Below are positions 3,770 to 60,135 of a DNA stretch of 64,000 nt, in pieces. The stretch is from assembly GCA_035480095.1 (NCBI GenBank), contig DATIIC010000019.1, forward strand, positions 17,658-81,657. The letters run 5' to 3'. Source of the DNA: Candidatus Saccharimonadales bacterium (GTDB lineage Bacteria > Patescibacteriota > Saccharimonadia > Saccharimonadales > UBA4665). The position numbers were made by a program, and so were the translations under genes. The notes beneath the pieces were generated by a model. That model made no database searches, was not told where the DNA came from, and saw only the letters and a list, made by a program, of their open reading frames with translations. The first letter of the stretch is position 1, and each line of letters begins with the position of its first letter.

Positions 3770-4030
3770 TTATGAGTTAGTGGTTTGGCGAGCTAGGCGG
3801 CGGTAAGCTAGGGTATTCAGGACAGCTACTGCCGCCAAGTACATCAGACCAGTAACGCAGGACTGTAGCAGCGGCGAATGCAAACTCCAAACCAGGTAGG
3901 TACCACTCGCCAGGGTGGCCGCCACCAACCCGTAGCTAACCCGCAGCTTTCGCCGGGACGGCGCCACCAAACACAGGCTGGCACAGACTAAGCTGAGTAG
4001 CGCGACCGAAACATGAAGCAGTACCATCAT
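3770..4030 (-). CDS. small hydrophobic membrane protein (86 aa) downstream of cyoE
   Basis: The ATGATG at 4025..4030 gives MMVLLHVSVALLSLV... with three predicted TM helices. The longer track ORF (to 4231) would overlap cyoE and was not used. Confidence 0.45.
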   Translation of the reverse strand: MMVLLHVSVALLSLVCASLCLVAPSRRKLRVSYGLVAATLASGTYLVWSLHSPLLQSCVTGLMYLAAVAVLNTLAYRRLARQTTNS

Positions 4031-4058
4031 ACTGGTTCTAGTGTACTCTAGAATGTGC

Positions 4059-4913
4059 TTACGGCAAAAGCGGACTGACTGCCAAGATGCCGGCCAGCGC
4101 CAGCAGCGTAATGAGCGAAAAGCCGAACATACCCCGTGCCCATTTTTCGGGCTGCTCCGACTGGAAGCCATTGACACCCTGGTACAGCCAGTACACACCG
4201 AGCACCGCCATAGCAGCCGCGAAGCTGGCACTGGCCGTACCGAACACGGTCAGCGACACCACGGAGAGCACATACAGCACGGTATACGCAATCATCCAAA
4301 CCTGGGTGCTGCGCACGCCTTTCTTTACTGGCCACACCGGCAGGCCCCCGGCCTTGTAGTCCTTCAGCCGGAAAATGCTTATGGCGTAAAAATGCGGCAT
4401 CTGCCAAAACACCATCACCAAACCAAGCAGCAGCGCAGTCAAATCGAACCGGCCGATGACGGCGGTGTAGCCGGCCACCAGCGGCACCGCGCCGGCAATT
4501 GTACCAACCAACGTACTGTGTATGGTGGTGCGTTTGGTCCAGGCATAAAACACTACGTAGTCAATGTACCCGATGGCGCCGAGTAGCGCCGTCAGCCAGT
4601 TCACGTGCAGCAGCAAGATGGCGATGCCGACCAGGCCAAATACGATGGCGATGGCCAGCAGGCGGCCAGGCGAAACCTCGCCAGTTACCGTCGCGCGCTT
4701 TTTGGTGCGGGACATTCGCGCGTCTATGCCACGGTCGGTCAGGTTGTTGGCCGCGCAGGCGGACATCACAATCAGCGTGGTGCCGATGATGGTATAAAAC
4801 AGCAATAACCAGTTGAGGTGCCAAGCACTAGCAAACAAAAACCCGGCCAGCGTCATCATGACGTTAGCGTACGTCCGCTCCGGCTTCAGCGCTTCGTAGT
4901 AGGCTTTTAGCAC
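4059..4913 (-). CDS. cyoE: protoheme IX farnesyltransferase (heme O synthase)
   Basis: It is a UbiA-family polytopic protein with the motif NNLTDRGIDARMSRTKKR. It is the last gene of the cyo operon. Confidence 0.9.
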   Translation of the reverse strand: MLKAYYEALKPERTYANVMMTLAGFLFASAWHLNWLLLFYTIIGTTLIVMSACAANNLTDRGIDARMSRTKKRATVTGEVSPGRLLAIAIVFGLVGIAILLLHVNWLTALLGAIGYIDYVVFYAWTKRTTIHSTLVGTIAGAVPLVAGYTAVIGRFDLTALLLGLVMVFWQMPHFYAISIFRLKDYKAGGLPVWPVKKGVRSTQVWMIAYTVLYVLSVVSLTVFGTASASFAAAMAVLGVYWLYQGVNGFQSEQPEKWARGMFGFSLITLLALAGILAVSPLLP

Positions 4914-4918
4914 GGCCG

Positions 4919-5287
4919 TTACAGCGAGTCTTGGCTCTTTAGGTACTGCTCAGTCTGCTGCAGCGTCATGCGGTTGTTCAGATTGTTCATAATCCACCAG
5001 GAACCAAAGACCACCAGCACCACAATCATCAGCATCAGCAGGGCGGTTGCCAGCTTCCACCGCGAGCCGGTCTCTTCGCCCACGTGCAAAAACAGAATCA
5101 TCTGTACCGCGAACTGGGCAACAGCTAACCCCGAAATGAAGAAAATGACGGTGTTGTGGTCCAGCGTAGAGCGCGTCACTAGCACATAGGCCAGCATCGT
5201 CAGCGCCACCGAGGCGATGAAGCCACCGATGTACTTTGTAAGCTTCAATGGGTGATGCGTTCCGTGTTCTGCAACTACCGATTTCAT
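4919..5287 (-). CDS. cyoD: cytochrome o ubiquinol oxidase subunit IV
   Basis: This 122-aa protein has three TM helices and follows cyoC with a 4-nt overlap. Confidence 0.8.
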   Translation of the reverse strand: MKSVVAEHGTHHPLKLTKYIGGFIASVALTMLAYVLVTRSTLDHNTVIFFISGLAVAQFAVQMILFLHVGEETGSRWKLATALLMLMIVVLVVFGSWWIMNNLNNRMTLQQTEQYLKSQDSL

Positions 5288-5895
5288 ACGCCCAAACTCC
5301 CATACAAGTAAACGATGGTGAAGATGAAAATCCAGATGACGTCCAAGAAGTGCCAGAACAAACTAAGCAGCGTTAGGCGCTTCATGATGCTGTGTGTCAG
5401 TCCCTGGGTAAACGTAAAGAAGCCCATCACCGCCATCCAAATCAAGCCAAACGTAATGTGCAACCCGTGCGTACCAACCAGCGTAAAGTAGCTGCTTAGG
5501 AACCCGCTGCGCCGCCAACTATCGCCGTCCACCACCATGTTGCGGAACTCGGTCAATTCTAACCCCAGGAAGGTTGCGCCCAGCAGGAAGGTGACGCCAA
5601 ACCACAGCAGCACCTGCTGTTTGTCGCGCCGCTGTGCCGCCAGCATGGCCATACCGCAGGTAAAACTACTGGCCAGCAGCGCCATGGTTTCCACCAGCAC
5701 GTAGGGAAGCTTGAATAGTTCTTTACCGCTTGGCCCGCCAAACGTATTACCGTGCAGCACCGCGTAAGTCGCAAACAGTGTGGCGAACAGCACGCAGTCG
5801 GTCATCAGGTACACCCAGAAACCAAAGACCGTTTTTTCGGTGGCTTCGTGCTCGATGTGTTCGAGGTCTAGCGTGGTGGAAGTTAGTTCACTCAC
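5284..5895 (-). CDS. cyoC: cytochrome o ubiquinol oxidase subunit III
   Basis: This 203-aa polytopic protein resembles heme-copper oxidase subunit III (FWHFLDVIWIFIF). It overlaps cyoB by 4 nt. Confidence 0.9.
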   Translation of the reverse strand: MSELTSTTLDLEHIEHEATEKTVFGFWVYLMTDCVLFATLFATYAVLHGNTFGGPSGKELFKLPYVLVETMALLASSFTCGMAMLAAQRRDKQQVLLWFGVTFLLGATFLGLELTEFRNMVVDGDSWRRSGFLSSYFTLVGTHGLHITFGLIWMAVMGFFTFTQGLTHSIMKRLTLLSLFWHFLDVIWIFIFTIVYLYGSLGV

Positions 5896-7877
5896 CGGGC
5901 ATACTCCTTTTGCTGATGGATGATGGCGTGCTCCATTTTTTCTACTTCCTTGGCAGTCATGATGTATTCGGGCTCGGGGTTGCTAGCGCGAACGACAAGT
6001 GTTGTCACCAGCGCCAGCAGGCCCAATACCGACAGCCAGTATAGGTGCCAAATCATGCCAAAGCCAATCGCACCGGCCAGCATACCAATCACCACACTCA
6101 GGCCCGAGTTCTTCGGCAGCAGAATGTCTTCGTAGCGCTTTACGGGTTTCTTAGCCAAGTGTTTGTCGTGCCAGAATTGGTCGTGTTCGGTCACCACGGG
6201 CAACGTGGTGAAGTTGTAAACCGGAGCGGGTGAGGGCACCGACCATTCCAGTGTGCGGCCATTCCATGGGTCACCGGTAACATCACGCCGTTCGTTGCGC
6301 TGCCAAATGCTAAGTGCCAGCTGCAGTACCTGCAGGCCAATGCCCACGCCAATCACCGCCACGCCCACACCAGCCACAATGAACAGTGGCTGCCAACCGA
6401 GTGATGGGTCGTAGTGGTCCAGGCGGCGGGTAGCGCCCATCAACCCCAAAATGTACAACGGCATGAACGCTAGCAGGAAGCCGATAGACCAACACCAGAA
6501 AGCGGCTTTGCCCAAGCCCTCGTGCAGGCGGAAGCCAAAAATCTTCGGGAACCAGTAAATTAAGCCGGCAAAGTAGCCAAACACCACACCGCCGACAATC
6601 ATCATGTGGAAGTGGGCGACCAGGAACAGGCTGTTGTGAACCTGGTAGTCGATGGCCGGGACACTCATCAGCACACCCATCACGCCACCTATTGTAAAGA
6701 TTACAACGAATCCTATAAACCACAGCATGGGCGATTTAAAGCTAATGCGCCCGCGGTACATGGTAAATAGCCAGTTAAATATTTTCACGCCAGTCGGAAT
6801 CGCAATCACGCCGGTAGCTATACCAAAGACGGCATTCACGTCCGCGCCCGCACCCATGGTAAAGAAGTGGTGCAACCACACGGTAAAGCTTAGAACCACG
6901 ATGGCCCAAATGGCCCACACCATGCTGGCGTAACCAAACAGCCGCTTGCGCGCAAACGTCGCCACAACTTCACTGTAAATGCCGAAGGCCGGTAGTACCA
7001 AAATGTACACCTCCGGGTGGCCCCAGGCCCAAATCAAGTTCACGTACATCATGGGATTGCCGCCAAAACCGCCGCTAAAGAAATGCATGCCGAGCGTGCG
7101 GTCCAGCGCCAGCAAGGCCAGCGTAACGGTCAAAATGGGGAAGGCGAAAGCAACTAGCACCATCGAGGCCATGACGCTCCAGGCGAACATCGGCATTTTC
7201 ATCAGCGTCATACCGGGTGCGCGCATTTTTATAATCGTCACCAGAAAGTTGATGCCTGAGAGCATACTGCCCACACCAGCAATCTGCAGCGCCCATATCC
7301 AGTAGTCCACGCCCACGCCTGGGCTATACGCGAGCTCGCTCAGCGGCGGGTAAGCTAGCCAACCGGCAGCCGAAAATTCACCAAAGACAAGTGACAAGTT
7401 CACCAGCGCCATACCGACTGCAAACAGCCAGAAACTGGTGGCGTTTAAGAACGGGAAGGCAACGTCACGGGCGCCCAACTGCAGCGGCAGCACTAGGTTG
7501 ATGAGCCCGAACATTAGTCCCATCGCAACAAAGAAAATCATAATGGTACCGTGGGCACTAAAAATCTGCTGGAAATGGTAGGGGTCTAGAATGCCGTGGC
7601 CATTAGCGCCCAGCGCCTGTTGCAGACGCATCAGCACCGCGTCACCGGCGCCGCGCAGCAGCATTACCAGCGCCACGATGATGTACATCACGCCAATTTT
7701 CTTAGGGTCCTGCGTGGTCAGCCATTCTTTCCAGAGCCATTTCCACCGCTTCAAAACGGTTATCAGCACCACCACGGCCAGCGCGCCAAACACCAGTGAA
7801 CCGGCACCGCCAATCGTAATAGCATCTTTCGGGAACCAGTCCCAACTCAGGCGTCCCAGCAGGCTGGCAAACATCAT
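5892..7877 (-). CDS. cyoB: cytochrome o ubiquinol oxidase subunit I
   Basis: This 661-aa protein carries heme-copper oxidase subunit I signatures (WAWGHPEVYILVLPAFG, HHFFTMG, VAHFHMM). Confidence 0.95.
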   Translation of the reverse strand: MMFASLLGRLSWDWFPKDAITIGGAGSLVFGALAVVVLITVLKRWKWLWKEWLTTQDPKKIGVMYIIVALVMLLRGAGDAVLMRLQQALGANGHGILDPYHFQQIFSAHGTIMIFFVAMGLMFGLINLVLPLQLGARDVAFPFLNATSFWLFAVGMALVNLSLVFGEFSAAGWLAYPPLSELAYSPGVGVDYWIWALQIAGVGSMLSGINFLVTIIKMRAPGMTLMKMPMFAWSVMASMVLVAFAFPILTVTLALLALDRTLGMHFFSGGFGGNPMMYVNLIWAWGHPEVYILVLPAFGIYSEVVATFARKRLFGYASMVWAIWAIVVLSFTVWLHHFFTMGAGADVNAVFGIATGVIAIPTGVKIFNWLFTMYRGRISFKSPMLWFIGFVVIFTIGGVMGVLMSVPAIDYQVHNSLFLVAHFHMMIVGGVVFGYFAGLIYWFPKIFGFRLHEGLGKAAFWCWSIGFLLAFMPLYILGLMGATRRLDHYDPSLGWQPLFIVAGVGVAVIGVGIGLQVLQLALSIWQRNERRDVTGDPWNGRTLEWSVPSPAPVYNFTTLPVVTEHDQFWHDKHLAKKPVKRYEDILLPKNSGLSVVIGMLAGAIGFGMIWHLYWLSVLGLLALVTTLVVRASNPEPEYIMTAKEVEKMEHAIIHQQKEYAR

Positions 7878-8761
7878 AACCGCGCGTCTCCTATTGGCAT
7901 CATAGATTTCATAACGATGTTGTCGTACAGGTTCGGCTCTACACTGCTGTAGCCATTTTTGAATTCGGTGGGCTCGGTAATGACGCTGGGCTTGGAAAGC
8001 TTGGCGTATTCGGCAGCCGTCAGGTGCTGGGGCAGGCGGTGCATGATGTCCAGCCAGTAGCCATAAATCTCGGCAGGCAGCACGTGCACGGTAAACTTCA
8101 TGTCGGCGAAACCTTTGCCGCCGATGTTTGCCGATACACCGCGGTAGTCGCCAAGCTTGTCGGCTTGCAGGTTCAGTCTGGTTACCATACCCGGCATAGC
8201 ATACATCTGCCCGCCCAGTTGCGGAACCCAGAAGCTGCCCATGGTCGTGTCGCTGGTGATGTCGAACTCCACCGGTGTGCCAACCGGGATGTCAACGGCA
8301 TTCACCCGGGCAATGTGTTCGCCGGGGTAAATGAACAGCCACTTCCAGTCCATGGCCACCACCTGGATGTGCAGGGTAGGCTTGGTGGACGAAAGTGGTT
8401 TGTACGGGTCGAGCGCGTAGCTGCTGCGCCAGGTGATGGTAGAAATAACCACCAGCAAGATAGTGGGAATTACCCACCACACTGTTTCAATCTGCCAGTT
8501 GCCTTCAAATTCTGGTGCGTACTTGGCAGTTTTGTTGCCCTCGCGGTATTTCCAGACGAAGTAAATCAGCAAAGAAAAAACCGGGATGACAATCAGCCCG
8601 GAAAGCACCGAACAGAGGATGATAAGGTTGAGTTCCTTGTGCGCAATCTGTCCGGCTGGCTGTACCACCGCCACCATATGCCGGCTAAGGTACCAGCCCG
8701 TAACGGCTACGATGCCGGCGATTGCCGCCAGCAGCATTACAAACTTCGCGTACTTTTTCAT
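7874..8761 (-). CDS. cyoA: cytochrome o ubiquinol oxidase subunit II (no CuA ligands)
   Basis: It has two N-terminal TM helices and a cupredoxin-like domain (SFWVPQLGGQMYAMPG). The CuA Cys-x3-Cys position reads GVSANIGG, which is what a quinol oxidase shows. Confidence 0.9.
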   Translation of the reverse strand: MKKYAKFVMLLAAIAGIVAVTGWYLSRHMVAVVQPAGQIAHKELNLIILCSVLSGLIVIPVFSLLIYFVWKYREGNKTAKYAPEFEGNWQIETVWWVIPTILLVVISTITWRSSYALDPYKPLSSTKPTLHIQVVAMDWKWLFIYPGEHIARVNAVDIPVGTPVEFDITSDTTMGSFWVPQLGGQMYAMPGMVTRLNLQADKLGDYRGVSANIGGKGFADMKFTVHVLPAEIYGYWLDIMHRLPQHLTAAEYAKLSKPSVITEPTEFKNGYSSVEPNLYDNIVMKSMMPIGDARL

Positions 8762-8873
8762 GTTGTATCAGTAGGCACCTGTCTTACACCGATTGTACCA
8801 CAGCCCGGGGTATAAATGTGACCACTTGCGCAAAAACGCTGTACCCTAGGCCACAAACGAGTTAGGACGGCTT

Positions 8874-8882
8874 TGCTACGCT
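8874..8882 (+). promoter_or_regulatory. extended -10 box TGCTACGCT, 6 nt upstream of GTG 8889 (leaderless arrangement)
   Basis: TGCTACGCT is followed by GATGGT and then GTG. Confidence 0.45.
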
Positions 8883-8888
8883 GATGGT

Positions 8889-9407
8889 GTGGGCAGTATA
8901 ACGACTAGTGAGGTGGGACCAGAGCATGTGCCATGGGCAGGCGTGAACGAAATTGACCGCGGGTTTATGGAGTGGTTCGAAGAGGACCAGGAGCTAAACG
9001 GGTTCGCCAACGAACGCGCCGCCGAATTCGTGACCGAGTTACACGCCCTGCTAGAAACCAACGGCCACCCGGTCGAATCCGACCCGGGCAGCTCACTGCA
9101 TTTCGAACTAAAAAAACTGGTGTTTTTATTCACCAACCCCGATGACTTCGAAAACACCATTGAACTGCGCGATGTAATGTTGTTCTTCGTAGTGTTATAT
9201 GCCCGCGCGGGCAAGGACCTGGGCAAGGTACCGGCCGTCCTGAGCGATTTCACTTACCAGGCAGACGAAGTGTACTTGCCAAGGCTGGCCGAAGCCATCG
9301 AACCTTGGAACTCCATGCAGGAGCGCGAACACTTTTGGCTAGCCTGGGGCATGGCCACGACGGGCGGCAGCGGCCCGAACATACCGGCACAGTCACGAAT
9401 ATCGTAA
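8889..9407 (+). CDS. hypothetical acidic protein
   Basis: This 172-aa ORF has a leaderless-type promoter. No motif was recognised. Confidence 0.5.
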   Translation: MGSITTSEVGPEHVPWAGVNEIDRGFMEWFEEDQELNGFANERAAEFVTELHALLETNGHPVESDPGSSLHFELKKLVFLFTNPDDFENTIELRDVMLFFVVLYARAGKDLGKVPAVLSDFTYQADEVYLPRLAEAIEPWNSMQEREHFWLAWGMATTGGSGPNIPAQSRIS

Positions 9408-11078
9408 TTAGAAGTGTTCGCGGATGTGGCTGTAGCTGTACTTCCAGTCGGCGTTGGCTTTTTTGTGCGGGTTGAAGATGCCGGCCGGGTCGAACGTGGT
9501 TTTAACTTCGCGGAACAACCCCACGATTTCCTTGCCGAACTGGGCTTCCAGCCATGGGCCGCGCACCAGGCCGTCGTTGTGTTCGCCGCTTAGGGACCCG
9601 CCGTATTGCAGCACCAAATCGTTGACTTCTTTCTGCGATGGCTCAATTTTGCGGCGCTCTTTGGGGTCTTCGATGCGCATCAGCGGGATGACGTGGAAGT
9701 TGCCGTCGCCCATGTGCCCGGCAATCGTCGCAAACAAACCGTACTTTTTAATAATCTTCCGTAGCTTGGGCAGGAACTCGGGCAAGTTCTTGGGCGGCAC
9801 AATGAAATCGTCGATGTACGGCGCGGTGTGCTTGTCCTTCACTTTGCTGCGCAGCAATTGGAAGCTGTAGCGGCGCATAATCCAAAACTTCTCGCTCTTG
9901 GCTTCCGATGGGTCTTCCTCGAAGCCGTTGATTTCGTAGCGGGCACGGTACTCCGCCAGTTCCTCGTGCAGGGCATGGACTTTTTTGCGCACTTCCGCTT
10001 CGGTTTCGCCGTTGAACTCAACCATCAGAATTAATTTAGGGATGCCGCGCAATAATTGCAGGCCGTCCGGTATGAGCGTGACCAGCAGGTGGATGAAGCG
10101 CTTCCAGCCCAAGATTTTCAGGAACGATGGCATAAAGCGGATGCTCAGCCAGAGCGTGGCGTCGTCGAAACTTTCGAAGGTGGCCGGTTGGTGCTCCAGC
10201 ACTTTGGGGATGAGCTCGCCCAGTTTGTCGATGTCTTTCAGGAACAGCACCAGCAGCCCGGAGTGCGCCCGGTGCGGCACCAACCGATACGTGATGTCTG
10301 TCACGAACCCTAGCGTGCCTTCAGAGCCCACAATCAACTTCGTCAGGTCAAAGATGCCGGACTCGCGGTCCCACACATCCCACAGCGTATAGCCCATGCT
10401 GTTTTTGCTGACTTTCGGCCGTGCCGCCTTAATCTCGTCGTAGTGCTTTTCGCACAAATCATAGATGCGCTTGTAGATGTTGCCCTCGTAATCTTTTTGG
10501 GCAATCTTCTTTTCCAGTTCCTTTTTGTTCAGCGGCTTCAGCGTGTATTCGTTGCCGTCGGCAAACACCACGCGCAGCTCGTTCACAAAGTTCTGGACTT
10601 TGCCGTACTCCAATGATTTTTCGCCGCCAGAGTTGTTGGCCACCATGCCGCCGACGGTGCAGAGGTCGCGGGACGCCGGGTAGCTCGGCATCAGGGCGTT
10701 TTGTTTCAAGGTCTCTTTTTCGAAGTCGCGGTAGAACACGCCCGGCTGGGTTTGGGCTTCCGTGGCCGTCACACGCTCCACTTTGTTGAAGTGCGCGTTA
10801 AAGTCCACGATGACGGATTCGTTGATAGCGCCGCCGGCCATGTCGGTGCCGGCGCTGCGGGCAGTTACGGACAGGTCCGGCATGGTTTTCTTCTTAGACG
10901 AGACAAGTTTGATGAGCGTTTGGACGTCGGCGCTGTCTTTGGGCATGACCACCAGCTTAGGGCGGAGCTCGAACATGCTGGCGTCGTGGCTGTATTTGTC
11001 TTTGGCAGCAGGGGAGTCATCCAGTTCGCCCTTAAAGCCGCTGCGAACTAGAGCCTGCTTAAAATCTTCCATAAGCAT
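9408..11078 (-). CDS. FAD-binding oxidoreductase (FAD_binding_4 family; D-lactate dehydrogenase or GlcD-like)
   Basis: This 556-aa protein has an N-terminal FAD-binding PCMH-type region (VVMPKDSADVQTLIKL...ARSAGTDMAGG) and a C-terminal FAD-linked oxidase-like region (HNDGLVRG). Confidence 0.8.
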   Translation of the reverse strand: MLMEDFKQALVRSGFKGELDDSPAAKDKYSHDASMFELRPKLVVMPKDSADVQTLIKLVSSKKKTMPDLSVTARSAGTDMAGGAINESVIVDFNAHFNKVERVTATEAQTQPGVFYRDFEKETLKQNALMPSYPASRDLCTVGGMVANNSGGEKSLEYGKVQNFVNELRVVFADGNEYTLKPLNKKELEKKIAQKDYEGNIYKRIYDLCEKHYDEIKAARPKVSKNSMGYTLWDVWDRESGIFDLTKLIVGSEGTLGFVTDITYRLVPHRAHSGLLVLFLKDIDKLGELIPKVLEHQPATFESFDDATLWLSIRFMPSFLKILGWKRFIHLLVTLIPDGLQLLRGIPKLILMVEFNGETEAEVRKKVHALHEELAEYRARYEINGFEEDPSEAKSEKFWIMRRYSFQLLRSKVKDKHTAPYIDDFIVPPKNLPEFLPKLRKIIKKYGLFATIAGHMGDGNFHVIPLMRIEDPKERRKIEPSQKEVNDLVLQYGGSLSGEHNDGLVRGPWLEAQFGKEIVGLFREVKTTFDPAGIFNPHKKANADWKYSYSHIREHF

Positions 11079-11172
11079 AAGCTTATCACAAACCTCACAT
11101 TTCGTGCGCTAGGCTTAGTTTCATAGCGCCGCAAAGCAAAATATGCTAGCGGCTTGCAACTGGGGAAATTGC

Positions 11173-11181
11173 TGCTACAAT
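11173..11181 (+). promoter_or_regulatory. extended -10 box TGCTACAAT, with TTGCAA 16 nt upstream, serving ndh
   Basis: TTGCAA sits at 11154..11159 and TACAAT at 11176..11181. The ATG at 11192 lies 10 nt downstream. The track's ATG at 11180 overlaps the -10 box. Confidence 0.5.
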
Positions 11182-11191
11182 GGGTGCCGAA

Positions 11192-12388
11192 ATGGAAAAA
11201 ACACAGAAACAACGCATCGTTGTCGTCGGCGGCGGCTTTGGTGGCGTAAAGACAGCTCTAGAACTAGCCGCTCACCCCAGTAACTTTGAAATCACGCTCA
11301 TTTCCGAGCGGCCGGATTTTTGGTACTTCCCAACTCTCTACCATACGGCCACGGGCGGTAGCAACACGCAGAGCAGCATTGCGCTTAAAGAACTTTTCCA
11401 CAAGAAGCCGGTCAAGATTATTGTCGGCAAGGCCACGGTCCTCGACCGCGAAGCCAAAACAGTCAAACTCGAAGATAAGACGGCCGTACCATACGACCGT
11501 CTTGTTTTAGCGCTCGGTGTCGTCACTAACTACTTCGGCATCCCCGGCCTGGCCGAATACAGCTTCGGTGTCAAATCCATTGCCGAAGCCGAAACGCTAA
11601 AGCGCCACCTGCACGAACAAATCACCGACAACAGCAAGCCGGAACTCAGCTACGTCGTAGTCGGCGGCGGCCCGACCGGCATCGAGCTAGCCGGCGCCAT
11701 GACGAAATACATCAAATTCATCATGAAGAACCACGGCGTGGAAGACCGCCGCGTGCACGTCGACCTAGTCGAGGGCAACGAGCGCCTGATGCCGCGCATG
11801 CCCAAGAGTGTCGGCCTGGCCATCGAGCGCCGCTTGAAGCGCCTGGGCGTTAATTTGTACCTGGGCAAAACCGTCGAAGGCGCCACCGCCGACGAACTAA
11901 TGGTCTCCGGCAAGCCCATCCGCAGCCACACCATCATCTGGACCGCCGGCCAGGCCAACAACCCGTTCTTTACCGAAAACGCGTTCGCACTCAGCCCACG
12001 TAAAAAGGTTGAGGTCGATGAATTCCTGCGCGCCAGCAAAGACATCTTCGTCATCGGCGACAACGCCGAAACCGTCTACAGCGGCATGGCCCAAACCGCC
12101 ATTTACGACGCCGACTTCGTGGCCCACAACATGGTCAAGGACGCCAAGGGCGAACCGAAGCTGGCCTACCGGCCGAAGAAACCCATTTACGTCACCCCCG
12201 CCGGTTCGTACTGGGCGGCAGTGGAGTGGGGCAACACGCACATCTACGGCAAGCTCGGCTGGCTACTGCGCGAAGCCGGCGACTTTGTGGCCTTTACCGA
12301 CATCGAACCCATCCCCTCGGCCGTCGGCCAATGGGCGCAAGTCCTCAAGCACCAACATCTTTGTGACACCTGCGGCGCCGCTTCTTAA
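11192..12388 (+). CDS. ndh: type II NADH:quinone oxidoreductase (NDH-2)
   Basis: It has two dinucleotide-binding folds (RIVVVGGGFGGV and YVVVGGGPTGIELAG). An alternative start at 11180 is possible. Confidence 0.85.
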   Translation: MEKTQKQRIVVVGGGFGGVKTALELAAHPSNFEITLISERPDFWYFPTLYHTATGGSNTQSSIALKELFHKKPVKIIVGKATVLDREAKTVKLEDKTAVPYDRLVLALGVVTNYFGIPGLAEYSFGVKSIAEAETLKRHLHEQITDNSKPELSYVVVGGGPTGIELAGAMTKYIKFIMKNHGVEDRRVHVDLVEGNERLMPRMPKSVGLAIERRLKRLGVNLYLGKTVEGATADELMVSGKPIRSHTIIWTAGQANNPFFTENAFALSPRKKVEVDEFLRASKDIFVIGDNAETVYSGMAQTAIYDADFVAHNMVKDAKGEPKLAYRPKKPIYVTPAGSYWAAVEWGNTHIYGKLGWLLREAGDFVAFTDIEPIPSAVGQWAQVLKHQHLCDTCGAAS

Positions 12389-12407
12389 GTAACACATGGA
12401 ATGAGAA

Positions 12408-13260: not shown

Positions 13261-14229
13261 TTATTTCTCCTCCGCTTCGGCTTCGTCATGCGCTTTTTGT
13301 TTGCCGGTTAGGCTTAGGAACACGTCGTCGAGCGTGGGTTTGTGCACGTTCAGGCTGGCCACGGTCACCTTGGCCCGGTCTAGCGTTTCTAGCACGTCTT
13401 TTACGTCTTTGTTGGTGTCGGTTATCACGGTAGTTAGGCTGTTTTCTTTGTCGTTAGTATCTACCACGCGTTTGCCCAGTAGTTCTACGGCCTGCTGCAG
13501 TGCTTTGGCGCTGGTGAAGGTCAGCTCCAGGCGGTCTTTACCCACCTTGGACTTGAGCTCGCTGGCGCTGCCCTCGGCTATCACTTTGCCGCCGTCTATC
13601 ACCACAATGTTGTCGGCCAGTTGGTCGGCTTCTTCCAGGTACTGGGTGGTTAGCAGGATGGTGGTGCCGCCGGCCAGCAGGTTTTTGATGATGCCCCACA
13701 TGCTCTGGCGGCTGCGCGGGTCCAGCCCGGTGGTTGGTTCGTCCAGGAAGATAATGGGCGGAGTAGCAATGAGGCTAACGGCCAGGTCTAGGCGCCGGCG
13801 CATGCCGCCGCTGTAGGTTTTTAGCGGGCGGTCGGCGGCTTTTACTAGGTCGAACTCGGCCAGCAGTTCCGTGGCCCGGGCCTGGGCGCTGTGCTTGGTT
13901 AGGCGGTACAGGCGGCCCATCATCACCAGGTTTTCGCGGCCGGTTAGCATTTCGTCCACCGCGGCACTCTGGCCGGTCAGGCCAATCACGCTGCGCACCT
14001 TTTGCGCTTCCGCCAGCACATCGTGCCCCTCAATTGTTACGCTGCCGCCATCTGCCCGCAGCAGGGTACTCAGGATGCGCACAGTGGTAGTCTTGCCAGC
14101 CCCGTTTGGCCCCAGCAGCGCCAGCATGGTCCCACGCTGCACGCTAAAGTTAACGCCCTTTAAAACCTCGTTCTTGCCATACGCCTTGCGCAGGTTTTTA
14201 ACCGAAATAACTGTGTCATTTTGTTGCAT
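13261..14229 (-). CDS. ABC transporter ATP-binding protein (DrrA-like)
   Basis: It has Walker A GPNGAGKTT, signature YSGGMRRRL and Walker B IIFLDEPTTGLD. An extended -10 box (TGTTAAACT, 14239..14247) lies 9 nt upstream of the ATG. Confidence 0.9.
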   Translation of the reverse strand: MQQNDTVISVKNLRKAYGKNEVLKGVNFSVQRGTMLALLGPNGAGKTTTVRILSTLLRADGGSVTIEGHDVLAEAQKVRSVIGLTGQSAAVDEMLTGRENLVMMGRLYRLTKHSAQARATELLAEFDLVKAADRPLKTYSGGMRRRLDLAVSLIATPPIIFLDEPTTGLDPRSRQSMWGIIKNLLAGGTTILLTTQYLEEADQLADNIVVIDGGKVIAEGSASELKSKVGKDRLELTFTSAKALQQAVELLGKRVVDTNDKENSLTTVITDTNKDVKDVLETLDRAKVTVASLNVHKPTLDDVFLSLTGKQKAHDEAEAEEK

Positions 14230-14339
14230 ACGGGTATTAGTTTAACAGATGTTGTGCCGGTAAATCCAAACCTGTGGCTTCAATACACGCACAGTGGTAA
14301 GATTGGATTAGTGCTTAATCGTGGTGGGATGAGGCAAAC

Positions 14340-15662
14340 ATGGCAAATAATGTATTCCCACATTTCAAAGTTATAACCGAAACAAACTGCCTAGCCCCCA
14401 GACTTGAAAATCTAGTGGAACAGGTTCCGTACTCCGGCTTCAGGGAAGCTATGGGTAATTTAATAGCGATACGCAAATCGCTACGCATGCTTAGTGCCGC
14501 TGGACGTATTAGCGAAATATCAAATTGGCAACAATACTGTGAAGCTCTATGTTGGATAAACGGTGAGGCACCACTGACTACATGGTACCCGGTTGCCCAG
14601 ATTGATGATTACAGACAAATTGACGAGGCGACAGCGAACAGTTTTAACTCGTATGTCGCCAGCCTTAAAAGCACCCTCAATGGGCAACCCACATACACAC
14701 AGACCCAACTCTATGTCGCAGCCATCGAATCAAAACTCGTTGATGACATAGTTCACGAACAAATCGAACCACTGCGCACCGATTTCGACAGTGCAATGAC
14801 CGAGGGCCGCACAAACCTCATCAGCTCTCTTGAGGAGTTGCAGTCCCAGAAGGCACTGGATCTTAACACGAGCTTTAATACGCAGCTTCAGGATATTCAC
14901 GTTGCCAAAGACGGAGCCATTGCCGAGTTTACCCAAGCACGTGCACTTGCAGACTGGAGTGAATTTTACGAAGAGCGTGTAAAGGAATACGAGCTTGCAC
15001 TATACGGTAAACCGTGGCCGACAAATGCTATGAGAAAGAAGTACAAATCGTATCGAAAATTCCGGAATGGTTTACCGAAATCGAATACTTGGCAATCAGA
15101 TTTGGCAGGTGTGCCGGTAGGCGAATCATCGGTAAGCGCATTTGTTAAGGGTTCTGTGCGCTGCATATCCAAGGGCATGCCAATAGTACGCTCTAAGGCT
15201 AGATCCTACAGTGGAAAACGAACTATGTGGTTTTCTCTACTTGTAGCCAGCGTCTTGTTAGTTGTTCTAGTAAACCTTGCGAGTGTATATGATATACATT
15301 CTTTCCTAGGCATTGACCCCACGAAGTTACGTCCGACCCACGAGGACACCCAATTATTCGCAAAGATAGCCACCTATGTTGCGCTCTTTGCGATACCATC
15401 GCTTGGATATTCCTTTGCCAACAAAAACTATCGCATTTATTCGAACATACTCGAGCAATACCGTCACCGAGCCATTGTTGCAAAGACAATTCAGGGCGTA
15501 CTGAAGCAGGAACATGACGATTCGACCAAGGATATCCGGCAACAGCTCACTGCAGTTGCTGCAATTGCAATGTTTGAGCAGAAGACGATTGGTCACCTGA
15601 CCAAGAACGAAGCAAACTCAACCTCCGTACTTGATTTAATAACAGCCTTTAAACAATCCTAG
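14340..15662 (+). CDS. hypothetical protein: helical or coiled-coil N-terminal two-thirds, then two TM helices and an amphipathic tail
   Basis: This 440-aa ORF is visibly AT-richer than its flanks. The TM helices are MWFSLLVASVLLVVLVNLASVY and LFAKIATYVALFAIPSLGYSF. No enzymatic motif was recognised. Confidence 0.6.
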   Translation: MANNVFPHFKVITETNCLAPRLENLVEQVPYSGFREAMGNLIAIRKSLRMLSAAGRISEISNWQQYCEALCWINGEAPLTTWYPVAQIDDYRQIDEATANSFNSYVASLKSTLNGQPTYTQTQLYVAAIESKLVDDIVHEQIEPLRTDFDSAMTEGRTNLISSLEELQSQKALDLNTSFNTQLQDIHVAKDGAIAEFTQARALADWSEFYEERVKEYELALYGKPWPTNAMRKKYKSYRKFRNGLPKSNTWQSDLAGVPVGESSVSAFVKGSVRCISKGMPIVRSKARSYSGKRTMWFSLLVASVLLVVLVNLASVYDIHSFLGIDPTKLRPTHEDTQLFAKIATYVALFAIPSLGYSFANKNYRIYSNILEQYRHRAIVAKTIQGVLKQEHDDSTKDIRQQLTAVAAIAMFEQKTIGHLTKNEANSTSVLDLITAFKQS

Positions 15663-15687
15663 CTAGGCTTAGGCTTGAGATAAAGTC

Positions 15688-16476
15688 ATGAGCGATTCAA
15701 GTCAAGATGTCCCGACGACCAGTCTCACAGAAAAAGGAGGCTTGTGCAGACTTTGCCTAGAGAATAAGCCCGACATGAGGGCTCATATTATGGCCGAAGG
15801 GCTTATGAAGCTCATCCACGGCCAACCGGAATATGACGGGCGGTTTATAATGGTTGGTCCTGACCTTCCTCGGCCCATCAACCGACCGACAGGCTCCTAC
15901 GACAGAACCATACTGTGCCGAAAATGTGACAACCAACTTGGGTCACTCGATGAGGTGGCTATTCAATTCTGTAAACGCACTGATTTGAAGCCACACCCCT
16001 CTGGGGCTGCATTTACCATAACGGGAGTTGACGCAAAGAAGCTTAAACTCTTTGCCCTCTCCTATGTTTGGAGAGCCTCGATAACAAATCTGGACGAATA
16101 CAAAGGCGTAAGCTTGGGCGTCCATCATGAGGAGATGATTAGAAACATGCTCATCGAGAACAATTCTGGTGGTGCTGACGATTACTCCGTGCTTATATCA
16201 AAGTTCAAGCTGCCTGCTGACAAGGAAAAATGGGGAATGCACGTACTTAATCCTGTGGCCAATCGAATGGACGGGATTAACCTCGTTGACGTTTACCTTC
16301 CAAATCTTTACAAGCTTAAAGTGAAGGTCGACAGGCGACCCTTCACTCAAGGAATGGGGAGGATGGGTCTTGGTGCAACAGATGAAATATTAGTCTTGGA
16401 CATGGGAGAGTATACAGCTTCACAAGAATTCTCAATTATGCATCGGGCAATTATGAATACACGTTCTCAATCTTAG
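15688..16476 (+). CDS. HNH_5-like zinc-finger nuclease-fold protein with an uncharacterised C-terminal domain
   Basis: This 262-aa protein has CRLC...AHIMAEGL...CRKCDNQLGSLDE, which fits the CxxC..(E/D)H..P/E..L....CxxCN...G..D pattern of HNH_5-type proteins. It is AT-richer than the flanks. Confidence 0.5.
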   Translation: MSDSSQDVPTTSLTEKGGLCRLCLENKPDMRAHIMAEGLMKLIHGQPEYDGRFIMVGPDLPRPINRPTGSYDRTILCRKCDNQLGSLDEVAIQFCKRTDLKPHPSGAAFTITGVDAKKLKLFALSYVWRASITNLDEYKGVSLGVHHEEMIRNMLIENNSGGADDYSVLISKFKLPADKEKWGMHVLNPVANRMDGINLVDVYLPNLYKLKVKVDRRPFTQGMGRMGLGATDEILVLDMGEYTASQEFSIMHRAIMNTRSQS

Positions 16477-16524
16477 GGCCAACACAAAAGTCAGTCCAAG
16501 AGAGCCGGTTTTTGCGAGGCGTGG

Positions 16525-17514
16525 CTAGCCAAAGGTGAACACCAACACCTGCGCGCCGGGCTGGAGGAATTCGATTTGGAATAGGCGGTCCTGGATGGGT
16601 TGTTGGCTACGGATTAGCTGGTACATGCGCTGTTCGGTGGCCGTGCCGTTGCCCTCGGCATCTGCGTCTTCGCCGTGTGCGCCGTGCGGTGGTTCGCCGT
16701 CCAGCCGCACCCGGAACTGCACCGAGCCGCCGTGCGTAACCGGGCCCATTACCAGGTTTAGGTCGCGGGCGTGGAAGCGGAAGCTAAGGCTGGCGCTGGG
16801 TTCGTCGGCCACGGCGACGGTGTTGTCTACCGTCCAGGCGCCCTGGAGCGCCCACTGGTTTAGCCCCGGCGTGTCCTCGCCGTCGTAGGTGTGGCTGCGG
16901 CCCACGGCCAGGCCGCCGGGCGTTACGAAACCGTTGGCGCGGTCGTAGCCCAGGTAGGTTTCGGCCGAGCCCAAGTTGGTCCAGTCCGCCGGGGCGGCTG
17001 TACCGCGCAGGTCTACGTCTACCAAACTGTCGCTGACCTTTTCCGCACCGGCTTCCGCCAGCAGCTGCTGCAGCACCCGTTCGCACATTTCGTATTCACC
17101 CTCGCCGAAATGGTTGTAACGGATGCGCCCCTGGGCGTCCGCAAAATACAGCGCCGGCCAGTAGTGGTTGGCAAAGGCGTTCCAGATGGCGTAGTCGTTG
17201 TCTACCACCACGGGGTAGTCCACCTGCAGGCGCTGAATGGCTTGCTGCACGTTGGCCAGGTCGTGCTCCAGCGCAAACTCCGGCGTGTGCACGCCCAGCA
17301 CCACCAGCCCGGCCGCCCGGTATTTTTTGGACCAAGCCCGCACGTAGGGCAGGGTACGCAGCCAGTTTACGCAGGTGTAGGTCCAGAAGTTTACCAGCAC
17401 CACCTTGCCGCGCAGGGCCTCCGGCGTGAGCGGGTCGGTGTTAAACCACTGCGTAGCGCCCGTAAAGGGCGGCAGGTGTTCGGTGGCTGGCAGGTGGAAT
17501 ATTGCGCGGGTCAT
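16525..17514 (-). CDS. thioredoxin-fold redoxin with a DipZ-like C-terminal domain (single-Cys active site)
   Basis: This 329-aa protein has VVLVNFWTYTCVNWLRTLPY in place of the usual WCxxC/CxxC, followed by a roughly 150-aa beta-rich C-terminal domain. Confidence 0.75.
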   Translation of the reverse strand: MTRAIFHLPATEHLPPFTGATQWFNTDPLTPEALRGKVVLVNFWTYTCVNWLRTLPYVRAWSKKYRAAGLVVLGVHTPEFALEHDLANVQQAIQRLQVDYPVVVDNDYAIWNAFANHYWPALYFADAQGRIRYNHFGEGEYEMCERVLQQLLAEAGAEKVSDSLVDVDLRGTAAPADWTNLGSAETYLGYDRANGFVTPGGLAVGRSHTYDGEDTPGLNQWALQGAWTVDNTVAVADEPSASLSFRFHARDLNLVMGPVTHGGSVQFRVRLDGEPPHGAHGEDADAEGNGTATEQRMYQLIRSQQPIQDRLFQIEFLQPGAQVLVFTFG

Positions 17515-55900: not shown

Positions 55901-57463
55901 TTGTGAAGAAGCGGACGTTAAAGCGTCCGTTTTCTCTTTAGAAGAGGCATTTTGGTTAGTTCTAACCTTCCTTAGACTCCGCGCGATAGCGGGGTATTTT
56001 TCTTTTATAGGGACGAACCAGGGGTAAAGCTCTATATGCACCCTTTGGTCGCGCAGCGTCAGGCTACCACCAAGCGCGGTGAACACATCGCGTCGCTCTG
56101 TATCTGTTCCGTTATTAAAAATGTACCTCGCGTTAGTGGCAAAATCAAAGACACGCTCGGTTAGTTCTAACCATTTGTCTGCGCGACGCTCCGTATCGTG
56201 CAACGCTTCCTTTAATCGCTCCAGCTCACCAGCCAACCGCTCACGCTGCTCCACATATTCCTTGTCATCGATTAGCTCACGCAGGCGTAGGCCAGTCAGA
56301 ACGTCGAGTTCGTGCTGCTTTTTAAGCACCGCGCTGGACTGGGTTTGTTGCACAACCTCCCGCTGCTCGGTTTCTTGGTCGTGGCTAGCTCGCAACACAT
56401 CCAATGCCCAATCCCGAAACTCGGGTTCGATGGTCAGGGAAGCCAGTATGTTGTCTATCTGCTCTGTGATTTGCGCTTGGGTTAGCGACCGCTGACTACA
56501 AGGTTTCTTGTGGGTACAGTGGTAATAGGTGTACTCACGGGACAGTCCCGTACGTTTGATGGCCTTTGTCTTTGTTTCGGCGGTGATTGCACAACCACAC
56601 TCGCCGCACTGGAACGGGCCACGATACAGGAAGTCATGCGTTTTGGGTCGTGGTCGGCCTTTTCGCCCAAGCAAAACCTGTACGCGGTCAAATTCCTCTA
56701 GGGTAATCATGGGTTCATGACTGCCTTTATACAGCTCACCATTATGACGAACGTAGCCTGCATAAAAAGGGTCTGTAAACGCCCTGTACAGTGTTGAACG
56801 CGACACGGGGCAATCGCCAGTTTTGCGCGTCCTACGAAGCCTGTAGCCCCAGTCGTTATTAAGCACGTCCAGCACGTCGGGGACGCTACAGTTTCCAGTG
56901 AGCATAAGCCGCCATGCACGCTGTATTAGCGACCACCTGTCGGGGTCATTGATGATTATTTTAGTGCCCTTCATGCGCTCCGGCGTATTCAGATAACCCG
57001 TGGGTGCCCAGCCCGGTTTCCAGCCCATACTAAGCTTCTTTTCGTTACCGCGCTTTACATCCTTGCTAAGCTTGGCCGAAAAGTACTGTGACTGTGACAT
57101 GGTGAGCTGTAGCATCATCATGCCCTCGGGCGAGTTATCGAACGCGTAGGAGCCGAATTTGAGGTCACGGATAGCGCCAGTACGCACGCGATAGGTAACA
57201 CCCGAAGCGTCAATTTCGTTACGCGAAAGGCGGTCGGGGTGCCATGCAATTATGCCGTGCGCCTCACCGGCATCGATGCGCCGCAGCATATCGGCAAAAA
57301 TAGGGCGATTGTCCGGCTTAAAGGCGCTGGCCGCTTCGGGCGGCAGCTCGATAATCTCCAGGTCGGGGAACAGCTCCCGCGCCTTGTCACGCTGGCTCTG
57401 TAGCGACAACGCCTGCCGTTCTTCGGCTTCGGTAGATTTACGGGTGTACAGGAAGTATTTCAT
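55859..57463 (-). CDS. large serine recombinase (integrase)
   Basis: The resolvase catalytic domain has YTRKST...DRLSRN. A recombinase domain and zinc-ribbon-like CGECGC...YYHC follow, then a coiled coil. GGAGA lies upstream of the ATG at 57463. The last 14 codons are read from the complement of the tRNA-Asn 3' half. Confidence 0.9.
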   Translation of the reverse strand: MKYFLYTRKSTEAEERQALSLQSQRDKARELFPDLEIIELPPEAASAFKPDNRPIFADMLRRIDAGEAHGIIAWHPDRLSRNEIDASGVTYRVRTGAIRDLKFGSYAFDNSPEGMMMLQLTMSQSQYFSAKLSKDVKRGNEKKLSMGWKPGWAPTGYLNTPERMKGTKIIINDPDRWSLIQRAWRLMLTGNCSVPDVLDVLNNDWGYRLRRTRKTGDCPVSRSTLYRAFTDPFYAGYVRHNGELYKGSHEPMITLEEFDRVQVLLGRKGRPRPKTHDFLYRGPFQCGECGCAITAETKTKAIKRTGLSREYTYYHCTHKKPCSQRSLTQAQITEQIDNILASLTIEPEFRDWALDVLRASHDQETEQREVVQQTQSSAVLKKQHELDVLTGLRLRELIDDKEYVEQRERLAGELERLKEALHDTERRADKWLELTERVFDFATNARYIFNNGTDTERRDVFTALGGSLTLRDQRVHIELYPWFVPIKEKYPAIARSLRKVRTNQNASSKEKTDALTSASSQWLRGRDSNPRPID

Positions 57464-57606
57464 GATTTCTCCAATCAAAAAGGGCGACTCGCTGTTCACA
57501 CAGTCAGCAGCGAAAAGCCGCCTTCCGATACGAGCCGCCCTTAATGAGCGGAATAGAAAAGACTCTTCGCGTTTTTACTGACTATGTGAACGTTAATATT
57601 ATACCA

Positions 57607-57753
57607 TCAATCAGCTTCGGCTCGAAGTAGGGAGCGCACCAGAAGAACTAGGCTAGTGGCCTTTTTGGCAGCCTCATCACGGCTTAGTACAACGCCCGTC
57701 TTTTTGCTGTACAGCGCAACAAATTCGTCTAGCTGTGTGTCCGTAAAGTTCAT
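57607..57753 (-). CDS. possible 48-aa protein upstream of the integrase (candidate directionality factor or regulator)
   Basis: This ORF, MNFTDTQLDEFVALYSKKTGVVLSRDEAAKKATSLVLLVRSLLRAEAD, falls below the track's length cutoff. It lies directly downstream of the palindrome-rich region. Confidence 0.3.
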   Translation of the reverse strand: MNFTDTQLDEFVALYSKKTGVVLSRDEAAKKATSLVLLVRSLLRAEAD

Positions 57754-57882
57754 GGGGTATCCCTATAGTTATAGGAACTATAGATACCTACAGGTATCAC
57801 CATATGTTTCCTAATAGGGAATATATGGCGGTCTCTTTGGTTACCTATGTAGGTATCTCTATATCTATAGTTACTATAGTGG
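57754..57882. promoter_or_regulatory. AT-rich palindrome/repeat cluster (CTATAG and TACCTA..TAGGTA motifs), putative operator or recombination-associated region
   Basis: It contains CTATAGTT-ATAGG-AACTATAG, ATACC-TACA-GGTAT, TACCTA-TG-TAGGTA and CTATATCTATAGTTACTATAG. Confidence 0.4.
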
Positions 57883-58188
57883 TTAGCTGCCACTGTTTCT
57901 CTGCCATTCCTTTAGCGCAGCAATAGCAGCATCGTACATTTCTTGCCAAAGGTCGGTACGGGTGTCGAACTCTACGTCCGCGTAGTACCTGCCGAACTTT
58001 AGGTGCCTGGGCGGCTGCATCCACCAGTTGTCGTTCTTCTTTGACATTCGCATCGTCATCCCGGTGATGTACATGCCCAGGCTGGGGGACTCCACTTTTA
58101 GGCTGTATACGCCGTTTACCTCGTTCAGAACGTACGCTTCGACACCATACTTACTAAAGCCCACGGGATACCCCCAGAATCTCTTCAC
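57883..58188 (-). CDS. hypothetical protein
   Basis: This 101-aa ORF has a GTG start and overlaps the upstream ORF by 35 nt. Confidence 0.35.
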   Translation of the reverse strand: MKRFWGYPVGFSKYGVEAYVLNEVNGVYSLKVESPSLGMYITGMTMRMSKKNDNWWMQPPRHLKFGRYYADVEFDTRTDLWQEMYDAAIAALKEWQRNSGS

Positions 58189-58426
58189 GCAGCTCGTTTT
58201 GAGCTATCTCCACGGCCTGTAGAACCTGCACAACCGCAACTGGGTCGTGTAGGTCGTGACATACGCCACTAGTTTGTTCGTGCAAGCGCCTATGTTGCAG
58301 TGCGCTAAGTAGTGAATGTACCGATTCAAAATACTCGGAACGTTTCCATTGCTTGCCAGTCCGCCTTTGCAGCAGCCACCCGGTCTTGGTGGTTTTCGCT
58401 CGGTATTCGCCAAAAAATAAAACCAT
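58154..58426 (-). CDS. hypothetical protein
   Basis: This 90-aa ORF has AGGAG 4 nt upstream of its ATG. Confidence 0.45.
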   Translation of the reverse strand: MVLFFGEYRAKTTKTGWLLQRRTGKQWKRSEYFESVHSLLSALQHRRLHEQTSGVCHDLHDPVAVVQVLQAVEIAQNELREEILGVSRGL

Positions 58427-58443
58427 GTTTACTCCTAAATACT

Positions 58444-58479
58444 AAAAATCCCCCGCTCACTAGCGCGTGAAGCAGGGGG
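58444..58479 (-). terminator. putative rho-independent terminator after the 236-aa gene
   Basis: The minus strand reads CCCCCTGC-loop-GCGGGGG (one bulge), followed by ATTTTTAG. Confidence 0.4.
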
Positions 58480-58574
58480 TTCCAAGGCGCTAGTGAATCG
58501 TGAGCTTAGCTCACACGAACGACTATAGCCATAGGCAACGAGCGGTACCGCTTACCGTAGCGATAAACTTAAAT

Positions 58575-59285
58575 TCACGGCTTGTGTGACTTCTTGTATG
58601 CAGCGATAATTTTGCGAATATTTGATTCGTCGTACAGGCGGTCGAACTTTGCGCCAATCTCTTCGCGAATCTGTGGCGACTTCAGACCCTTGTTGTGCAG
58701 CCTGATGATTTCGTGACGAATGGCAGCACTATCCGACCTACTAACCCGTGCGCCAGGCTTAAAAAGCTTCGCTGGTTGGTACTCTTCTGCGCCCAGGACT
58801 GGGTGTGTGGCAAGCTGCTTTAAGTTGCGGTCGTACTCTTTATCGATGAACGCCTTTAGCTCGGTAGCTGATGTGTTTGGCGCTGCTAGTATCTGCAAAT
58901 AGCCGTGGGCATCGCTTGTCTTTGCCGGCACCTCCTCTGGTAATACCGTGTCTTTGTAGTACCACGCTGGGTCTTTGTGCGGGCCCCGTACGCCGTGCGC
59001 GTGGCTGATGTACTCAATGGGCGATTTGATTTGTTCAAGCAGCTTAGTATCCAACGCATCGGGGTGCAAGATGTGGTAGTAGTATGCCTGCACACATTCC
59101 CACGGTATTTTGTAGCGCTTCATTAAACGGAATACTCCCTGGTCTATAGGCTCATAACCCCAGTCGTGGCGAAACCGCTCCGTCTGCCTTTGCACGGCCG
59201 GGTCATCTATGAACGTTTTGAAAAGTCTCCACCGTCTTTCAAGCCAGACTGGTACATTTGGGGCGCTACCCATTGCATACATCAT
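58575..59285 (-). CDS. hypothetical protein with a possible C-terminal helix-turn-helix
   Basis: This 236-aa protein has the C-terminal region SAAIRHEIIRLHNKGLKSPQIREEIG, which resembles a short HTH. Confidence 0.5.
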   Translation of the reverse strand: MMYAMGSAPNVPVWLERRWRLFKTFIDDPAVQRQTERFRHDWGYEPIDQGVFRLMKRYKIPWECVQAYYYHILHPDALDTKLLEQIKSPIEYISHAHGVRGPHKDPAWYYKDTVLPEEVPAKTSDAHGYLQILAAPNTSATELKAFIDKEYDRNLKQLATHPVLGAEEYQPAKLFKPGARVSRSDSAAIRHEIIRLHNKGLKSPQIREEIGAKFDRLYDESNIRKIIAAYKKSHKP

Positions 59286-59533
59286 AACATCGGTGGCAGT
59301 TGTTTGGCAGCCCTGTAAATGGTATAAAACCTATAAGCTCTTTGAGCTATGACCTAAAGCCACGCGCAAGCGAAGGTATGGTCGCCAAAACCACATAGAA
59401 GAATTTAAGCTCGTCGTCAGAGCCCTCTTCTATGTGGTGCAGCCCGAAAGGGTTGTAGGCGTCCGCAAGGGCGTCGCTGGCGGCGGGCTTTTTGTTTGCC
59501 GCAAAACCAACCACAACACCGGAGGCAACAGGC

Positions 59534-60031: not shown

Positions 60032-60129
60032 CTTCCGTACAAGCATTGCGGGTATATCACCGACGGTGTTTGTCTGTTATATTCTGACATCCATTTCTGG
60101 CCCTATGCCGCGCCAGCGTAACCAGGCCT

Positions 60130-60135
60130 TATACT
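60130..60135 (+). promoter_or_regulatory. -10 box TATACT, 6 nt upstream of ATG 60142 (leaderless arrangement)
   Basis: TATACT is followed by AGAGTT and then ATG. Confidence 0.45.

Follow-up and report, generated by a model that had tools for sequence, protein, structure and literature searches.

A low-GC islet in a Candidatus Saccharimonadales genome carries two neighbouring, uncharacterised candidate defence genes

The described systems closest to the genes reported here include both single-gene defences and defence genes that reside inside other defence loci. DUF4238 (Rst_DUF4238) is a validated single-gene anti-T7 defence whose mechanism is obscure (Rousset et al. 2022, PMC9122126). PrrC (PMC12707154) and TgvAB (PMC11411939) are encoded within type I restriction-modification (R-M) operons, and a "guilt-by-embedding" survey places thousands of still-unknown families inside such operons (bioRxiv 10.1101/2024.01.29.577857). 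Bacteria of the candidate phyla radiation (CPR) are reported to carry CRISPR only rarely (PMC6509639). Here, we analyse a 64,000-nt stretch of genomic DNA from Candidatus Saccharimonadales bacterium (assembly GCA_035480095.1, contig DATIIC010000019.1, positions 17,658 to 81,657; hereafter the window) and focus on two adjacent genes within it, which we call A and B. On balance, we favour the view that they form a mini defence islet, that is, a piece of horizontally acquired DNA with two independent, uncharacterised single-gene defence candidates. A and B appear to be stand-alone defence-island genes from families that are absent in all libraries searched. At present, the islet is a well-documented pair of candidates supported by genomic association and does not amount to a new system.

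The initial annotation described two co-directional genes, 25 nt apart, in a segment that is lower in GC than both flanks and that it took to be horizontally acquired. The windowed analysis bears out the observation. Both open reading frames (ORFs) were verified on the plus strand with an intergenic gap of 25 nt. At 0.464, the GC content of the segment 14,340-16,476 is the lowest of all segments of 2137 nt in the window (z = -3.26), the average over the window being 0.5625. GC content at third codon positions (GC3) is 0.467 for A and 0.498 for B, compared with 0.72-0.82 for four flanking genes per side. In addition, the islet resembles the loci of A relatives in GC content (0.42-0.48 in the latter). 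Because GC and GC3 deviate from the surroundings and the islet GC matches that of the A-relative loci, the interpretation of the ~2.3-kb islet as horizontally acquired DNA is supported. The GC match fits transfer from a Saccharimonadia-type donor into a higher-GC genome. A scan of the islet borders for mobility signatures found no tRNA, integrase, direct repeat or inverted repeat, and promoter and terminator scans gave counts no higher than those in shuffled sequence. A search for an empty site with the exact protein of the flanking ABC ATPase returned only the window's own contig.

Contexts of relatives were gathered in four ways (exact-protein look-ups, a GTDB genome scan with the A alignment, a metagenome scan with the B alignment, and plasmid records), and co-occurrence was assessed by tblastn with both proteins and by hmmsearch with deep-alignment profiles over six-frame ORFs. 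Outside the window's own lineage, we found 15 loci with A only and 34 with B only, and neither tblastn nor the profile hidden Markov models (HMMs) detected both genes in any of these 49 loci. A and B occur together only in L046-L049, which comprise the contig of the window itself and two short contigs that encode identical proteins. In the look-ups, the contig of the window corresponds to CAZDDN010000002.1 of assembly GCA_964504245.1. The initial annotation had proposed a two-component module of the abortive-infection type and had named a lack of adjacency in other genomes as an observation that would refute it. Since none of the 49 outside loci has the homologues side by side, a conserved module is not supported, and our best reading is that A and B became neighbours by chance of insertion into one spot. 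The suggested defence-type character is retained for each gene separately, through the neighbourhoods described below, and is lost for a joint system. A functional coupling of A and B in this one lineage finds no support.

The prediction for protein A agrees with its first description as a 440-aa protein with a long helical region followed by two transmembrane (TM) helices. The AlphaFold (AF2) model is all-helical and of moderate confidence (pLDDT 71, pTM 0.41), with helices at residues 117-171 (55 residues) and 179-222 (44 residues). Hydropathy analysis gives a strong hydrophobic segment at 291-326 (Kyte-Doolittle [KD] value 2.55) and a moderate one at 337-357 (KD 1.44). Because the counts of lysine plus arginine (K+R) are 5, 2 and 5 before, between and after these segments, the TM hairpin is predicted to be N-in/C-in, with both ends cytoplasmic.

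Relatives of A are few. Close relatives amount to 17 clusters among 5.8 billion cluster representatives, and a profile search of 1.84 billion representatives yields 96 clusters, of which ~30 are full-length, the remainder mostly covering profile positions 330-425; the distant relatives are metagenomic singletons. The plan of the superfamily is constant: the N-region is soluble and spans 170-300 aa, a pair of neighbouring TM helices follows (two adjacent hydrophobic segments are present in nearly all of 78 representatives), and a signature comes straight after TM2. The N-region varies in length and shows low conservation. Conservation peaks at residues 360-425, where the mean top-residue frequency is 0.60 (360-390) and 0.44 (391-425), and H376, R377, F412 and G418 are each retained in at least 91% of the 78 representatives. 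A belongs to a rare superfamily in which an N-domain of variable sequence, predicted to be cytoplasmic, is followed by a TM hairpin and a conserved core that is likewise predicted to be cytoplasmic. A has no match in Pfam, NCBIfam, PADLOC or PHROG, and its 78 relatives match no Pfam or PADLOC family consistently. A sequence-profile search of the PDB returns only apolipoproteins, designed helical bundles and colicin E1, all non-significant, and Foldseek finds no PDB neighbour of the model at E < 1. Weak PADLOC matches of a few A relatives to LeoBC, LeoA and ZorA were discounted as probable coiled-coil or composition matches.

In every context, A relatives stand alone, and their neighbours differ from one locus to the next. 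Four are found in GTDB genomes, all of them Saccharimonadia metagenome-assembled genomes (MAGs), and none in the phage database or the plasmid database. A dense defence island is present in a Saccharimonadales MAG (L016, 1-9198), where the A relative lies at the contig end, a Dcm methylase and a BsuBI/PstI endonuclease are directly upstream of it, and Pycsar (PycC, PycTM), Shedu (SduA_C) and a resolvase lie within 7 kb. Elsewhere, A relatives adjoin an HpaII endonuclease and Dcm upstream with a reverse transcriptase downstream; an MmeI-type IIG R-M enzyme directly downstream; DUF6119 and GmrSD, in the vicinity of which two Dcm methylases and a BpuJI_N/NOV_C protein are encoded; or a MazG-like protein with an AbiO/Nhi-like SLFN-type helicase. 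Further contexts hold an SMC-like AAA_21 ATPase with DUF2130, a PLD-like protein, and a DDE transposase.

Protein B has 15 close clusters among the 5.8 billion representatives and 37 at profile level. In an alignment of 33 sequences, C20-x2-C23, H33 and C77-x2-C80 are invariant or nearly so, position 81 is D or E, and S125, W128 and R129 are invariant. The motifs follow in the order C-x-L-C, (S/A)-H-I-(I/M)-(P/A)-E, G-x-Y-D-x-x-I-L-C-x-x-C-(D/E) and K-L-F-x-L-S-x-x-W-R-A-S. The public, automated call of B (228 aa, start M35) omits window positions 15,688-15,789 and thereby loses the CxxC...H module. The homologue alignment supports the 262-aa ORF of the initial annotation, which is the better gene call. 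The AlphaFold model of B is confident (pLDDT 88, pTM 0.87), and Foldseek finds no fold match for it in the PDB (for the A and B models, nothing at E < 0.4). Only one structure matches it strongly, that of a phage protein without characterisation (E 7.5e-13, TM-score 0.70). A sequence-profile search of the PDB returns only MsrB and a PHD finger, both non-significant. B has two PHROG matches with function-less annotation, including phrog_19960 at 2e-15, and the phage database holds no B relative. Neither B nor the 33 relatives have a significant Pfam, NCBIfam or PADLOC match. The initial statement that neither protein can be assigned to a known family therefore remains valid.

The 12 loci of the closest B relatives (63-67% identity) are type I R-M operons with the gene order hsdM, a variable cassette, hsdS, GajA-like, GajB-like, B and hsdR. 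The two genes ahead of B encode an OLD ATPase with a PADLOC match to GajA (2e-29) and a short UvrD protein (341 aa) with a match to GajB (3e-9), and the start of B overlaps the stop of the GajB-like gene. In these loci (L004-L010, L024-L028), the cassette between hsdM and hsdS varies, being RhuM, SLFN_AlbA_2 with HATPase_c_4, or a helix-turn-helix (HTH) protein with an M78 peptidase. Other relatives lie straight after hsdS (L029) or, in an hsd operon of different composition, behind an SLFN_AlbA_2 fusion (L036). Outside hsd operons, the neighbours of B relatives are, in L030, a TIR protein together with a TraG/TrwB coupling protein; in L042, an NYN protein and a type IIG R-M gene; and in L011, a TrwB-like ATPase, toxin-antitoxin pairs and a relaxase. 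Distant relatives on alphaproteobacterial plasmids lie by a restriction endonuclease and an integrase/IS91 element in one case and by a resolvase in another. On a Sphingomonas plasmid (L051, 6920-8587), a distant B relative adjoins a DUF4238 gene in convergent orientation; the island around them also encodes AAA ATPases and a type ISP R-M enzyme.

From this company we infer a role in defence for each gene; for B there is also precedent, as genes residing within type I R-M operons, PrrC and TgvAB among them, have often turned out to serve defence. The following mechanisms would fit. A would be a self-contained membrane protein whose variable cytoplasmic helical N-domain senses infection; the TM hairpin and the core after TM2 would then oligomerise or gate, so that the membrane is compromised in an abortive-infection-type response. 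The N-region would accordingly be a diversifying sensor and the hairpin plus core a conserved effector, and membrane disruption of this type is the most economical guess for the action of A. B would be a soluble protein in which a Cys4 zinc site frames the conserved His and acidic residue. Its target may be nucleic acid, and a divergent nuclease of the His-Me finger type is one possibility. Being of a kind often embedded in type I R-M operons, B might have a guardian function or provide a second defence line. If these assignments are true, the islet represents two new single-gene defence families, and since the named carriers of A are Saccharimonadia MAGs, the finding would bear on phage resistance of CPR bacteria.

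We weighed three other explanations against this mini defence islet of independent genes. If A and B were one two-component abortive-infection module, B would be the sensor or co-effector and A the membrane effector. The common strand, the short gap, the same anomalous GC, the lack of a terminator-like site between the genes and the defence association of both families all speak for such a module. However, the conservation test failed in all 49 outside loci, and both genes recur in their own, differing contexts, the closest B relatives being translationally coupled to a GajB-like gene and not to A; we consider the module very unlikely. The same coupling speaks for a second explanation, according to which the hsd-embedded Gabija-like system has B as its dedicated accessory or third subunit and the window copy is an orphaned, functionless remnant: in 12/12 closest-clade loci B comes after the GajA-like and GajB-like genes with overlapping start, and the GajB-like protein is short. 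Against this, the relatives L011, L029-L036, L042, L050-L052 and L065 have no OLD or UvrD gene, and the B of the window is intact and keeps every family-invariant residue. B and its 33 relatives give 0 PADLOC matches to GajA or GajB models. We also rejected the idea that B represents a detached C-terminal half of this short helicase, since neither the PDB profile nor Foldseek yields a UvrD or GajB match. A Gabija accessory is therefore improbable.

The remaining explanation is that neither gene serves defence, with A a lineage-restricted membrane protein (e.g., of the envelope or of episymbiosis in Saccharimonadia) and B a zinc-finger regulator or mobile-element maintenance gene; their neighbours would then simply share the variable regions in which horizontally acquired DNA accumulates. 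Defence islands are general sinks for such DNA, and this weighs against our preferred reading, as do several further points. A distant A relative (L003) lies among housekeeping genes and two B relatives (L032, L065) are in housekeeping-like contexts; other B relatives adjoin resolvases, relaxases and coupling proteins. No experiment or homology connects A or B to a validated defence protein (searches of PADLOC, Pfam and NCBIfam were negative). The association with defence genes was assessed by eye in ~10 contexts for each family, with no background rate as a yardstick. The model of A is of moderate confidence, and its pore-forming activity is pure conjecture: the comparison with pore-forming families that the initial annotation had suggested gave ClyA, SmhB and AhlB only at Foldseek E 2.9-9 and TM-scores of 0.11-0.15. 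Similarly, a nuclease function of B lacks significant HMM, hhalign or fold support. On the other side, an R-M or other known defence gene lies immediately beside A in at least five independent contexts, B is found inside hsd operons of at least three different architectures, and the extremely sparse and patchy distribution of both families is a poor fit to a core physiological role. We thus regard a non-defence role for both genes as possible, though doubtful. The mini defence islet also has a bolder version, which we hold only tentatively, in which both genes are active stand-alone immunity genes of new families, A founding a class of single-protein membrane abortive-infection effectors and B being a zinc-bearing, very remote branch of the DUF4238/His-Me finger lineage and a recurrent guardian of type I R-M operons.

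The coordinates of the islet, its flanks and the protein regions are collected in Table 1.

Table 1. Features of the islet and its flanks, in window coordinates
Feature	Position	Strand	Basis
Low-GC islet, A and B plus intergenic borders	14230..16524	.	GC and GC3; between ABC ATPase and redoxin genes
Gene A, 440 aa, orphan 2-TM protein	14340..15662	+	ORF; family and fold searches negative
A residues 1-290, variable all-helical N-region, predicted cytoplasmic, putative sensor	14340..15209	+	AF2, low conservation, 5 K/R before TM1
A residues 291-359, predicted TM hairpin: TM1 291-316, short acidic loop, TM2 339-359	15210..15416	+	Hydropathy, charge
A residues 360-425, conserved, predicted cytoplasmic core (ANKNYRIY..N..EQY.HR..VA.T ... 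FEQK..GHL.K)	15417..15614	+	Superfamily conservation
Gene B, 262 aa, orphan soluble protein	15688..16476	+	ORF; family and fold searches
B residues 20-95, CxxC...H(I)(M/I)(A/P)E...G.YD..ILCxxC(D/E), putative Zn site, possible His-Me finger	15745..15972	+	33-relative alignment
B residues 116-262, conserved helix KLKLF.LS..WRAS, then alpha/beta domain	16033..16473	+	Alignment, AF2
Left flank, DrrA-type ABC transporter ATPase, resident high-GC	13261..14229	-	PF00005 and PF13732; GC3 0.724
Right flank, AhpC-TSA/Redoxin/Thioredoxin_10 protein, resident high-GC	16525..17514	-	Pfam families; GC3 0.821

The ATPase gene on the left flank is accompanied by an ABC permease gene, and further to the left (~4000-12400; L046, 1-8049) lies a haem-copper oxidase operon (COX1-4, UbiA) with an FAD-linked oxidase and NDH-2. 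In the two short independent contigs with identical A and B (L047, 1-232; L048, 1-426), the sequence stops 230-430 nt upstream of A, where the islet has its left border; the assembly may have broken there because strains differ at the insertion point. GC dips a second time, though less strongly (~0.50 vs 0.56 for the window), at ~57200-61000, and a match to the Rfam LOOT RNA (RF03000) lies at 59351-59475 on the plus strand (66.8 bits vs a gathering score of 46.4).

Among known membrane effectors, A resembles SLATT, PycTM and the 2-TM effectors of CBASS in having a TM hairpin with predicted cytoplasmic ends, in occurring in defence islands and in fusing a variable region to a conserved membrane module. 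It differs from them in that its 78 relatives match no TM-effector model and have no cyclase partner. In particular, the proposed kinship with SLATT did not hold up, as 0/78 superfamily members match any SLATT model at E <= 0.01 and A itself matches none at E <= 1. In the A contexts examined, no SMODS/SLOG or other nucleotide-signalling partner is adjacent, and the Pycsar genes of L016 are a complete pair with their own PycTM. For the large N-domain of A and its core after TM2 (HR...F...GH), we identified no counterpart among 2-TM effectors.

For B, the first comparison is with HNH_5 and other His-Me finger nucleases. Of the HNH_5-like four-Cys pattern in the initial annotation, the conserved cysteines (C20, C23, C77, C80) stand, whereas the HNH_5 label is not established, since the Pfam matches are sub-threshold only. 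HNH_5 is found in 5/33 members (best E 0.014) and Endonuclease_7 in 3/33 (best E 0.11), all below gathering scores; these are the two Pfam families with the largest numbers of matching B members, and the matches map to residues 20-95. As in HNH_5 and endonuclease VII, the two CxxC pairs of B flank a conserved His in an x-H-I-x-P context, and an acidic or Asn position comes right after the second CxxC. Comparable DHIYP and EHICP sequences are present in HNH motifs of the GmrSD type (bioRxiv 10.1101/2024.01.29.577857). Unlike in those nucleases, the His of B is ~43 residues from the second CxxC and is preceded by Ser or Ala where an acidic residue is expected. With regard to the beta-beta-alpha-metal fold of such nucleases, the conserved H33 and D/E81 fall in or near predicted strands (32-33, 71-72) and a helix (78-95), and Foldseek retrieves no HNH structure. 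Likewise, hhalign of the B profile against T4 endonuclease VII (sequence checked against PDB 1e7d) gives no match. Altogether, the HNH idea receives convergent, weak support.

By position, B resembles the defence genes embedded in type I R-M operons, since its relatives hold the same place between hsdS and hsdR as prrC and tgvAB. Unlike PrrC, RloC and TgvAB, B does not match any domain of the ABC ATPase, anticodon-nuclease or GmrSD type, and the copy in the window lies outside any R-M locus.

By size, setting and motifs, B also resembles DUF4238. The 33 B relatives have no match to Pfam DUF4238 (PF14022) at E <= 1, and DUF4238 lacks the two CxxC pairs. Nevertheless, hhalign of B against a DUF4238 alignment of 13 sequences from plasmid records gives a collinear match of 196 columns with both motifs aligned (score 21.4, probability 1.3%, P 0.039), whereas the reversed and 30 block-shuffled controls have a mean of 16.0 (standard deviation 1.5, maximum 19.2), cover at most 60 columns and reach 21.4 in 0/30 cases. 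We regard the relationship as an unproven lead that the alignments suggest, not as demonstrated homology. Like DUF4238, B relatives are stand-alone proteins of ~250-300 aa in defence hotspots and on plasmids, and the two share an N-terminal x-H-(I/Y)-(I/V)-P-x-F and a mid-protein F..S..W/F-R at similar spacing. If this lead is true, the putative zinc site and conserved His of B could offer the first mechanistic handle on the DUF4238-like class.

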